The notes: generated by a model from the letters alone, not told the origin. A DNA stretch of 5,320 nucleotides from a virus (IMGVR_UViG_2690316345_000006:1-5320), one strand, 5' to 3'; positions 4,450 to 5,045 are shown, counted from the stretch's first letter. Translations and numbers: made by a program.

Positions 4450-4881
4450 ATGTTTGGAATCTTCAAAAAGAAAACCCGCAGAGCGGCAGCGGAAATTAAA
4501 AAGTTTGAGAAACGCGATCTGGCACAGGCGGTGATTAACGCTGCATACCTGGTGGCCTATGCAGATGGTGAATGCGAGGCATCCGAGAAAGCGAAGATCG
4601 AACAGGTCTTACGTAATCAGCCTGCGTTGTCTGCGTTTACCTCGGAAATTAATGCGATTAGCGCAACTATTATCGGTCAGCTGGATACCAATTTTAAAAT
4701 TGGTCGTCGTGCCGCGTTACGCGAGATTGAGGATGTGAAACACGATACGCGTGAAGCGGAAGATGTGCTGGATGTGGCGGTGGCCATTGCGGAGGCAGAC
4801 GGCGAAATTGAGCCGGAAGAGCGCAAGGTGCTGGAAGAGATTGCCGGTGTTCTGGGTCTTCGTCTGGAGAATCACCTGTGA
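4450..4881 (+). CDS. TerB-family protein (143 aa from ATG 4450; the track's GTG 4378 extension is probably not translated)
   Basis: AAGGAA 7 nt before ATG 4450; two TerB-like half-repeats (AAYLVAYADGECEASEKAKIE and VAVAIAEADGEIEPEERKVLEEIAGVLGL) match the architecture of Klebsiella TerB as recalled. Confidence 0.75.
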   Translation: MFGIFKKKTRRAAAEIKKFEKRDLAQAVINAAYLVAYADGECEASEKAKIEQVLRNQPALSAFTSEINAISATIIGQLDTNFKIGRRAALREIEDVKHDTREAEDVLDVAVAIAEADGEIEPEERKVLEEIAGVLGLRLENHL

Positions 4882-5045
4882 CGGTAAAACTGCGCCTGGC
4901 TGTGGCTGCACTCCTGCTGTTTCTGGTGGTGATGGTGGATTTCACCAGCAGAATCATGTCGGTGCTGGCGGATGGGGTGCTGGTCTGCGGCATTGTGGTA
5001 TTGCTGTGGCCGGTGATAAAAAGAAACAGCCTGCATAATGCTTGA
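4878..5045 (+). CDS. Small membrane peptide (55 aa, two hydrophobic helices), coupled to the TerB-like gene
   Basis: GTG 4878 overlaps the TerB stop as GTGA, with GGAGA 7 nt upstream; reads VTVKLRLAVAALLLFLVVMVDFTSRIMSVLADGVLVCGIVVLLWPVIKRNSLHNA; the track only shows an overlapping frame (4751-5038) that looks non-coding. Confidence 0.5.
   Translation: MTVKLRLAVAALLLFLVVMVDFTSRIMSVLADGVLVCGIVVLLWPVIKRNSLHNA

Follow-up and report, generated by a model that had tools for sequence, protein, structure and literature searches.

The tciA-tciB cassette of a lambdoid prophage: a TerB protein, a coupled small membrane protein and a candidate regulatory leader RNA in a late operon

Introduction

What does a lambdoid prophage carry at the position where Shiga toxin (Stx) phages carry the toxin genes (stx), how is this cargo expressed, and what might it do for the phage? 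These questions are raised by the viral sequence IMGVR_UViG_2690316345_000006:1-5320, hereafter the window (the whole stretch of 5,320 nucleotides, nt, that was analysed), which is the late-regulatory region of a lambdoid Escherichia coli prophage and whose best match, at 97.7% identity, is in a pig isolate. An earlier reading of the same DNA, made without database searches (the sequence-only reading), had noticed a TerB-like protein of 143 amino acids (aa) whose stop codon overlaps the start of a 55-aa hydrophobic peptide, had placed the two in a late-expressed cargo position and had suggested that they form a self-contained envelope-stress or defence module. Here we describe the locus as a mobile three-part cargo cassette, composed of a leader RNA, tciA and tciB, in a Q-dependent late operon. 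Its parts are:

4312-4449, + strand, structured 5' leader of tciA (covariance model R1, 160.7 bits)
4450-4881, + strand, tciA, encoding a 143-aa single-domain TerB protein
4878-5045, + strand, tciB, encoding a 55-aa DUF3927 small membrane protein

Names and catalogue entries for the pair exist already: tciA/tciB in P1, families 632 and 1470 in PHROGs, DUF3927 in Pfam and 'TerB family protein' with 'DUF3927 family protein' in RefSeq; phage records, too, annotate the same pair as tciA/tciB. This existing name, the high abundance of the pair and the leader that sequesters the Shine-Dalgarno (SD) sequence of tciA had all escaped the sequence-only reading. The most novel element is the putative leader RNA family, backed by conservation and covariation.

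TciA is a TerB protein

The open reading frame (ORF) of tciA runs from an ATG at 4450 to a TGA at 4879-4881, and the TerB likeness of its product, proposed from the sequence alone, is borne out by the Pfam model PF05099, which matches residues 26-138 with 60.2 bits against a cut-off of 24.4 (E=2.9e-16). In PHROGs the protein matches phrog_632 end to end (1.7e-69), and a profile of 15 homologues aligns with the Klebsiella pneumoniae TerB structure 2JXU over residues 13-137 (E=1e-17). The AlphaFold2 model is all helical, with seven helices, a mean per-residue confidence (pLDDT) of 87.8 and a predicted template-modelling score (pTM) of 0.82; its best Foldseek matches in the Protein Data Bank are the TerB-type structure 2H5N (probability 1.0, template-modelling score 0.53-0.61) and 2OU3, with weak E-values (0.02). 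Two acidic motifs of the form A-D-G-x5-E, A36/D39/G40...E46 and A114/D117/(G118)...E124, are invariant or nearly so in sets of 15 and 39 homologues, and the first 20 or so residues form a strongly basic helix that starts with the conserved MFGxFKKK. The gene is under purifying selection, with a ratio of nonsynonymous to synonymous substitution rates (dN/dS) of 0.03 against close genera. TciA is thus a soluble, all-helical, full-length TerB protein that keeps both acidic motifs. Related families score below their thresholds on it, namely DUF533 (PF04391, 23.9 bits, cut-off 29.6) and DjlA (NF006948, 28.6 bits, cut-off 162).

TciB is a small membrane protein of the DUF3927 family

The tciB ORF extends from a GTG at 4878 to 5045 and, as the sequence-only reading had stated, has an SD of its own, GGAG, 9 nt before the GTG. 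Its 55-aa product matches DUF3927 (PF13064, 62.3 bits, cut-off 25) and phrog_1470 'TciB-like' (4e-30), and the frame is conserved, under purifying selection, with dN/dS of about 0.16-0.5 against close genera. The two hydrophobic helices that had been read from the sequence fared unevenly: hydropathy does give two hydrophobic stretches, residues 5-20 and 26-47, flanked by basic residues at both ends and with the best-conserved motif of the family, D-F-T/S-S-R...D-G, between them, whereas AlphaFold2 models the monomer as one continuous helix, residues 3-54, without a hairpin. Because of this unbroken helix, which tells against it, a two-pass hairpin topology is only plausible.

The family is small: a profile search of 1.84 billion proteins gave 113 representatives (50% identity), almost all of which measure 50-65 aa. 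Four database entries (P0124, P0186, P0248 and P0288, one of them named 'zinc-finger family protein') are TerB-DUF3927 'fusions' or long DUF3927 proteins and are artefacts of frameshifts or of chimeric assembly. Phage 434 carries a TciB without TciA in the same slot between Q and the lysis genes (L091, 2612-3844), where a 247-aa polytopic membrane protein (phrog_1521) is encoded before it and a 62-aa membrane ORF comes after it.

The two genes are coupled, and the membrane partner can be exchanged

At 4878-4881 the stop of tciA and the start of tciB share the four nucleotides of cctGTGAcg, the GTGA overlap of the sequence-only reading. Among near-identical loci in IMG/VR the small ORF is found in 80 of 80 and the 4-nt overlap with the tciA stop in 79 of 80, and the overlap is kept in 81 of the 87 loci compared. 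A species scan limited to one genome per species returned 33 loci, 32 of them usable, and in 26 of these 32 a match to the TciB hidden Markov model abuts or overlaps the TciA stop; two further species loci have, at the position of tciB, a divergent ORF with two hydrophobic stretches. The two genes are therefore co-conserved, among close loci as well as across species. Overlapping or abutting tciA-tciB genes are also present in P1, in the N4-like phage Pollock and in Klebsiella phage 5 LV-2017, and the same arrangement recurs in Klebsiella siphophages and in Erwinia jumbo phages.

In three loci outside the Enterobacterales an unrelated single-pass protein of about 70 aa (phrog_27356), with the motif C-x-WYGYQTER...VGCMV...GWVPR, takes the place of TciB; the GTG at which it starts overlaps the stop of TerB, by GTGA in both Pseudomonas cases:

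L089, 3432-3653, phrog_27356 partner ORF in Pseudomonas phage AF
L105, 4441-4644, phrog_27356 partner ORF in a P. juntendi prophage
L117, 4398-4604, phrog_27356 partner ORF in a Paracoccus prophage

Since TciB can be swapped for an unrelated, equally coupled membrane protein, the constant design is a TerB protein plus a small membrane protein.

The structured leader of tciA

The stretch of about 138 nt in front of tciA is predicted to fold, in its most stable form, into a hairpin that sequesters the tciA SD. The anti-SD CCUUU (4355-4359) pairs with the SD AAAGG (4436-4440), and the helix runs on through H2 (4363-4370/4424-4431) and P4 (4375-4380/4409-4414) to an apical region that includes the small hairpin P3 (4381-4391). 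P0 (4324-4328/4335-4339) is a separate hairpin 5' of the main helix, while in H1 (4347-4354/4395-4402) the apical loop pairs with the bases immediately 5' of the anti-SD. Of six homologues tested, five have the sequestering hairpin as their most stable fold, at -41 to -56 kcal/mol. The leader is read as an RNA of the + strand because its G-U pairs mark that strand as the structured one.

H1 occurs in at least eight sequence variants, all complementary: CCACAGAG/CUCUGUGG; CCGUAGAG/CUCUACGG; CCGCAGA/UCUGCGG; CCACAA/UUGUGG; CAGAGAG/CUCUCUG; CACAGAA/UUCUGUG; CCAAAGA/UCUUUGG; GAAAGU/ACUUUC. A search that selected on the 5' half of H1 only returned an Erwinia jumbo-phage lineage, in which all variants are compensated, together with unrelated chance matches. 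The covariance model R1 was built from the nested helices only, with H1 left out, and in its alignment of 80 distinct sequences 94.6% of cells are paired. Changes on both sides were found in 22 of 36 pairs, against 6.8±1.7 in shuffled alignments (none of 500 reached 22) and 5-13 in slid controls. These counts lean in favour of the structure, since the nested helices guided the alignment and its sequences are relatives of one another; in H1, outside the model, four of eight pairs are compensatory. Copies of the leader from Franconibacter, Pantoea and a Klebsiella phage are 77-81% identical to that of the window, comparisons in which the synonymous sites of tciA differ at 66-70% and the Klebsiella-type TciA retains 42% protein identity. 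Judged from these alignments, conservation of the leader greatly exceeds that of the synonymous sites in the downstream gene.

In lambdoid contexts R1 has a match 5' of each tciA, whichever of two subtypes the gene belongs to, and in IMG/VR all 79 distinct matches to the leader pattern are followed by a tciA of one of the two subtypes; by the same model the leader is absent from the P1, N4-like, Pseudomonas and Vibrio loci. A search of 4312-4449 against Rfam 15 (4227 families, E<=0.1) gave no match in a run that found STnc100, AgvB, sok and both tRNAs, and absence from Rfam is no proof that the leader family is undescribed. Known SD-sequestering phage leaders, such as translational riboswitches and the RNase III-processed leaders of lambda N and of T7 early genes, likewise have a long imperfect anti-SD:SD helix; the tciA leader differs from them in the additional covarying pairing between 5' flank and apical loop and in matching no Rfam family.

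Other explanations of this conserved stretch were considered and discarded. A coding extension of tciA from the in-frame GTG at 4378, giving a 167-aa ORF, was rejected on account of 1-nt insertions and deletions among relatives. Against a promoter stand the lack of an acceptable -35/-10 pair, by eye and by scan, and the G-U pairs, which mark the + strand RNA as structured. The small RNAs (sRNAs) PasA and PasC, linked to TerB genes in a 2026 preprint, lie beside an esterase gene and not 5' of tciA.

Leader paralogues precede other late-operon genes

Matches to R1 are not confined to tciA: elsewhere in the same late operons there are paralogues with the same architecture and different helix sequences.

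L003, 8905-9057, leader paralogue
L256 (VT2-Sakai), 9068-9216, leader paralogue
L001, 10440-10588, leader paralogue
L111, 6475-6599, leader paralogue
L096, 7442-7566, leader paralogue

In Stx phages paralogues stand 5' of ant, a P22_AR_N 'antirepressor' gene between the endolysin gene and Rz, with scores of 83.8 bits in Shigella phage 75/02 and 54.4 bits in VT2-Sakai. By blastn the ant-leader stretch is present in 265 phage records, and under the match there are only ant genes or nothing annotated. The other paralogues precede late-operon ORFs of 103-268 aa without known function, and no credible copy was found by R1 at stx2 in VT2-Sakai.

Genomic position and surroundings of the cassette

In VT2-Sakai the order of elements is Q, terminators, tRNA-Ile/Arg/Arg, terminator and stx2AB, with stx2AB where the window has the cassette. 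The tRNA block on the left is common to 297 phage records, mostly Stx2 phages, and homology to phiP27 stops near window position 4328; on the right, 5065-5320 has its counterpart in Stx1 phages, in the stretch that separates stxB from the nanS-p esterase gene. At the level of shared DNA, therefore, the cassette occupies the stx insertion point, with both flanks common to Stx phages, in agreement with the cargo position assigned by the sequence-only reading. The order of Q, terminator and Ile2/Arg tRNAs on which that reading relied was likewise recovered upstream, with the identity of the Ile2 tRNA given by homology only. The surrounding features are:

546-1379, 277-aa ORF without Pfam match, upstream of hok/sok
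1669-1992, hok/sok toxin-antitoxin locus (Pfam and Rfam)
1669-1839, sok RNA (105.9 bits)
1837-1992, Hok/Gef peptide (Pfam 4.3e-23)
3334-3888, + strand, Q-like late antiterminator gene, DUF1133 (Pfam DUF1133 1.7e-105, Phage_antitermQ 7.3e-08)
3967-3990, + strand, tR'-like intrinsic terminator, CCCGC-cattga-GCGGG followed by TTTTTTATT, read directly from the sequence
4028-4103, + strand, tRNA with anticodon CAT, probably tRNA-Ile2 (ARAGORN; Rfam tRNA 72.5 bits)
4204-4280, + strand, tRNA-Arg (TCT) (ARAGORN; Rfam)
4293-4318, + strand, terminator-like hairpin (4293-4312) with T run, closing the tRNA block
5050-5242, + strand, full-length STnc100 sRNA, directly after tciB (Rfam 145.8 bits)
5243-5304, - strand, AgvB, an anti-GcvB sponge sRNA (96.5 bits; the AsxR model is below its cut-off)

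The genes DUF1367 and ybcO lie between hok/sok and the Q-like gene, whose real start is the ATG at 3334, overlapping the ybcO stop, and everything 3' of the Q-like gene is late operon. The tR'-like terminator at 3967-3990 is absent from the list given by the consensus scan. The hairpin at 4293-4318 is the left edge of the cassette, and in other genera, too, it stands before the leader. The CAT tRNA is identical at 65 of 76 positions to P1 trnI, annotated as tRNA-Ile2, and its phiP27 copy is annotated as tRNA-Ile, so that the label Ile2, obtained by homology only, is probably correct. Among close relatives 29 of 80 have three tRNAs (CAT, Arg-TCG and Arg-TCT) where the window has two, and the 100-nt gap between them, 4104-4203, may mark the site of a missing or decayed middle tRNA. 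A 31-aa ORF at 5038-5133 lies inside STnc100 and is probably non-coding; a 193-aa ORF on the - strand (4694-5275), opposite tciA, tciB and STnc100, was treated as spurious, being probably a chance ORF of G+C-rich coding DNA.

Beyond the window, many genera of Enterobacterales have the pair between the lysis genes and a Q gene, which belongs to one of four unrelated families. Of 5426 complete E. coli genomes 1145 contain the pair; the median is 4 places per genome and the maximum 10. In P1 it belongs to the C1-repressed ban operon, in the N4-like phage Pollock it is among the genes adjoining the N4 gp16-like RNA polymerase gene, and in Erwinia jumbo phages it is inside a tRNA cluster. Lambdoid, P1-like, N4-like and jumbo phages thus all have members that carry the coupled pair, and some of these types are regarded as strictly lytic. 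In 11 of 42 diverse loci tRNA genes are present no more than 1.5 kb away, an enrichment and not a universal trait, among them P1 (Asn, Thr, Ile2) and the Erwinia jumbo cluster; the loci with tRNAs near tciAB include the window (4028-4280), L002, L084, L086, L087, L093, L104, L113 and L117. The link between tRNAs and tciAB is best read as a shared accessory slot, though it may also be functional.

Comparison with known systems

The closest relative is tciA-tciB(-tciC) in the ban operon of P1, with identities of 42% (TciA) and about 58% (TciB) over the aligned part. The order and the start/stop overlap are the same, and tRNA genes including tRNA-Ile2(CAT) adjoin the pair. P1 differs in having tciC (TciC, 35 aa, phrog_23152), without counterpart in the window; by tblastn tciC was found only in one P1-like locus, and the window ORF 5038-5133, the sole ORF to follow tciB, is unrelated to it by eye. 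It differs also in lacking the structured leader and in placing the genes under the C1-controlled promoter Pban, whereas the window pair is in a Q-dependent late operon.

With the TerB of the ter operon (terZABCDEF, 2JXU) TciA shares size, the domain over its full length and the conserved acidic DG...E motifs; unlike it, the window TerB stands alone with a small membrane protein and is phage-carried, and terC, terD/E and terZ/A are absent from the ORFs scanned, spanning roughly 550-5050 of the window, and from the annotated neighbours. TerB domains are membrane-associated and form part of two defence systems, Shango and Bunzi (10.1101/2022.05.11.491447), and in DjlA a TerB-like domain adjoins the membrane helix of the protein (PMC11709261). 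DjlA, YebE/DUF533 and the Bunzi TerB protein resemble the cassette in combining TerB at the inner membrane with transmembrane helices; they differ from it since the membrane part of the window pair is a separate, coupled polypeptide and there is no J domain. The likeness to DjlA and DUF533 is an analogy and not membership, because the scores are below the family cut-offs. A search of all of PADLOC-DB 2.0, Shango and Bunzi included, gave only PDC-S48 for TciA (14.5 bits over 35 residues) and nothing for TciB. As for stx and other morons of Stx phages, the insertion point is the same and the flanks are common on both sides; stx2 in VT2-Sakai is a different cargo and has no such leader. The pair belongs to the named, uncharacterised P1 tciAB family and to the TerB family, and not to the ter operon, Shango, Bunzi, DjlA or DUF533.

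Proposed expression and role

A consensus scan of the + strand from 3800 to 5320 found no promoter-like site, and such a scan may miss a weak promoter active in lysogens. Given this result and the two terminators ahead of the cassette, tR' and a second one, transcription of the cassette would fall mainly to Q-modified RNA polymerase, following induction. The most stable fold of the leader would then bury the SD in a long imperfect helix, with H1 as a second covarying pairing, and translation of tciA would probably be gated either by a conformational switch, in which a ligand or temperature drives the exchange between H1 and the anti-SD:SD helix, or by RNase III, whose cut in the imperfect helix of 22-25 base pairs would free the SD. 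TciB, made by translational coupling, would insert in the inner membrane and there recruit or partner TciA, producing a two-piece version of what DjlA, YebE/DUF533 and the Bunzi TerB protein are in one piece. The module would alter or monitor the state of the inner membrane during lytic growth, for the benefit of the phage. Its role would most likely be superinfection exclusion or protection from membrane-damaging agents, as in the 'Phi/PacB'-type ter phenotypes, and this is the least certain step; for the standalone TerB of Erwinia jumbo phages an action against superinfecting phages has been proposed (PMC7824862).

Taken as a whole, from the identity of the cassette and its late expression to a membrane TerB module serving the phage, this explanation is the best that we can offer, and we regard it as possible rather than probable. 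Several points weigh against it, beyond the unbroken TciB helix, the lean of the covariation counts and the lysogenic promoter that the scan may miss. Some TerB genes of Vibrio, Marinomonas and Pseudomonas phages, among them those of Vibrio K481, PMBT3 and Marinomonas prophages, have no small membrane ORF downstream. Natural TerB-TciB fusions were sought as evidence of interaction, and the longer family members and two 'fusions' among TciA homologues proved to be frameshift products or chimeras; in the absence of a genuine fusion, contact between TciA and TciB is therefore without Rosetta-stone support. In P1 tciA, tciB and tciC are dispensable for plaque formation (PMC10695390), and the tci genes have been lost from about half of P1-like phage-plasmids, subgroup 1 (PMC9603915). 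In the literature searched we found no experimental paper on tciAB or DUF3927, so that the statement of the sequence-only reading that the pair has no assigned function still holds.

The function suggested by that reading, an envelope-stress or defence module, is still conjectural, as PADLOC finds no known defence system in the pair. In its stronger form, in which TciA senses infection at the membrane and TciB depolarises or aborts the infected cell to the advantage of the lysogen, we consider it unlikely. TerB does occur in Shango and Bunzi and ter operons do confer phage-inhibition phenotypes, the cassette is a typical moron in the cargo slot, and genomes of enterohaemorrhagic E. coli (EHEC) have up to 10 copies; small membrane proteins of the size of TciB, moreover, often serve as abortive-infection effectors. 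However, the PDC-S48 fragment is all that PADLOC-DB 2.0 offers, and a lysogen probably does not express a cassette that lies behind two terminators in a Q-dependent late operon and shows no promoter-like site. An N4-like phage and jumbo phages, of types regarded as strictly lytic, also carry the pair, and such carriers, together with the dispensability in P1, fit a lytic function serving the phage better than a defence serving the lysogen. Those carriers, and the location in operons of the lytic cycle, would suit a decoy, a phage TerB mimic that titrates a ligand or partner of the host Ter, Shango or Bunzi systems, with TciB placing the mimic at the membrane; the full-length alignment of TciA with the ter-operon TerB would agree with mimicry, and the pair is dispensable on a laboratory host devoid of Ter, Shango and Bunzi. 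Still, we think it quite unlikely, given that matching systems in the hosts of these phages are not evidenced, that the acidic motifs are fully conserved, as in a working TerB and not in a dead mimic, and that anti-defence of this kind is not described in the literature searched.

The position just upstream of the lysis cassette invites a further explanation, in which TciB is a holin- or antiholin-like accessory of lysis timing and TciA its cytoplasmic regulator. Many lambdoid prophages have the pair between Q and S/R, in size and hydrophobic pattern TciB resembles small holins, and a leader paralogue precedes ant inside the lysis cassette, annotated 'regulation of host cell lysis' in VT2-Sakai; but the pair is far from the lysis genes in P1, N4-like and jumbo phages and neither Pfam nor PHROGs gives a holin-family match, which leaves a role in lysis very unlikely. 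Tellurite resistance, finally, the function implied by the database names, has in its favour the name and the homology to TerB only, and the P1 name was itself assigned 'by homology'. It is hardly credible because the other ter genes are absent: the ORFs scanned for domains, spanning roughly 550-5050 of the window, include no terC, terD/E, terZ or terA. The authors who described PMBT3 likewise remarked that its lone terB is without the other genes needed for activity (PMC8421299).

A bolder extension of the phage-serving reading, which we hold to be unlikely in this full form, would make the element of about 140 nt and its paralogues an undescribed class of phage cis-regulatory RNA that switches between the SD-sequestering hairpin and the pairing of 5' flank and apical loop, in response to a ligand, temperature or RNase III, and so times cargo proteins after induction, with TciA-TciB as a minimal two-piece membrane TerB sensor excluding competing phages.

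Significance

About a fifth of complete E. coli genomes have the cassette, EHEC strains often in several copies, in the slot of Shiga toxin. The new points are the TerB protein with a coupled small membrane protein as an invariant unit, its carriage by phage types regarded as strictly lytic, and a leader shared with ant. The invariant unit, the lytic-type carriers and the probable RNA-gated translation turn a vague annotation into testable hypotheses, and, if the leader is a true switch, it would give a handle on the timing of cargo genes next to stx after prophage induction.

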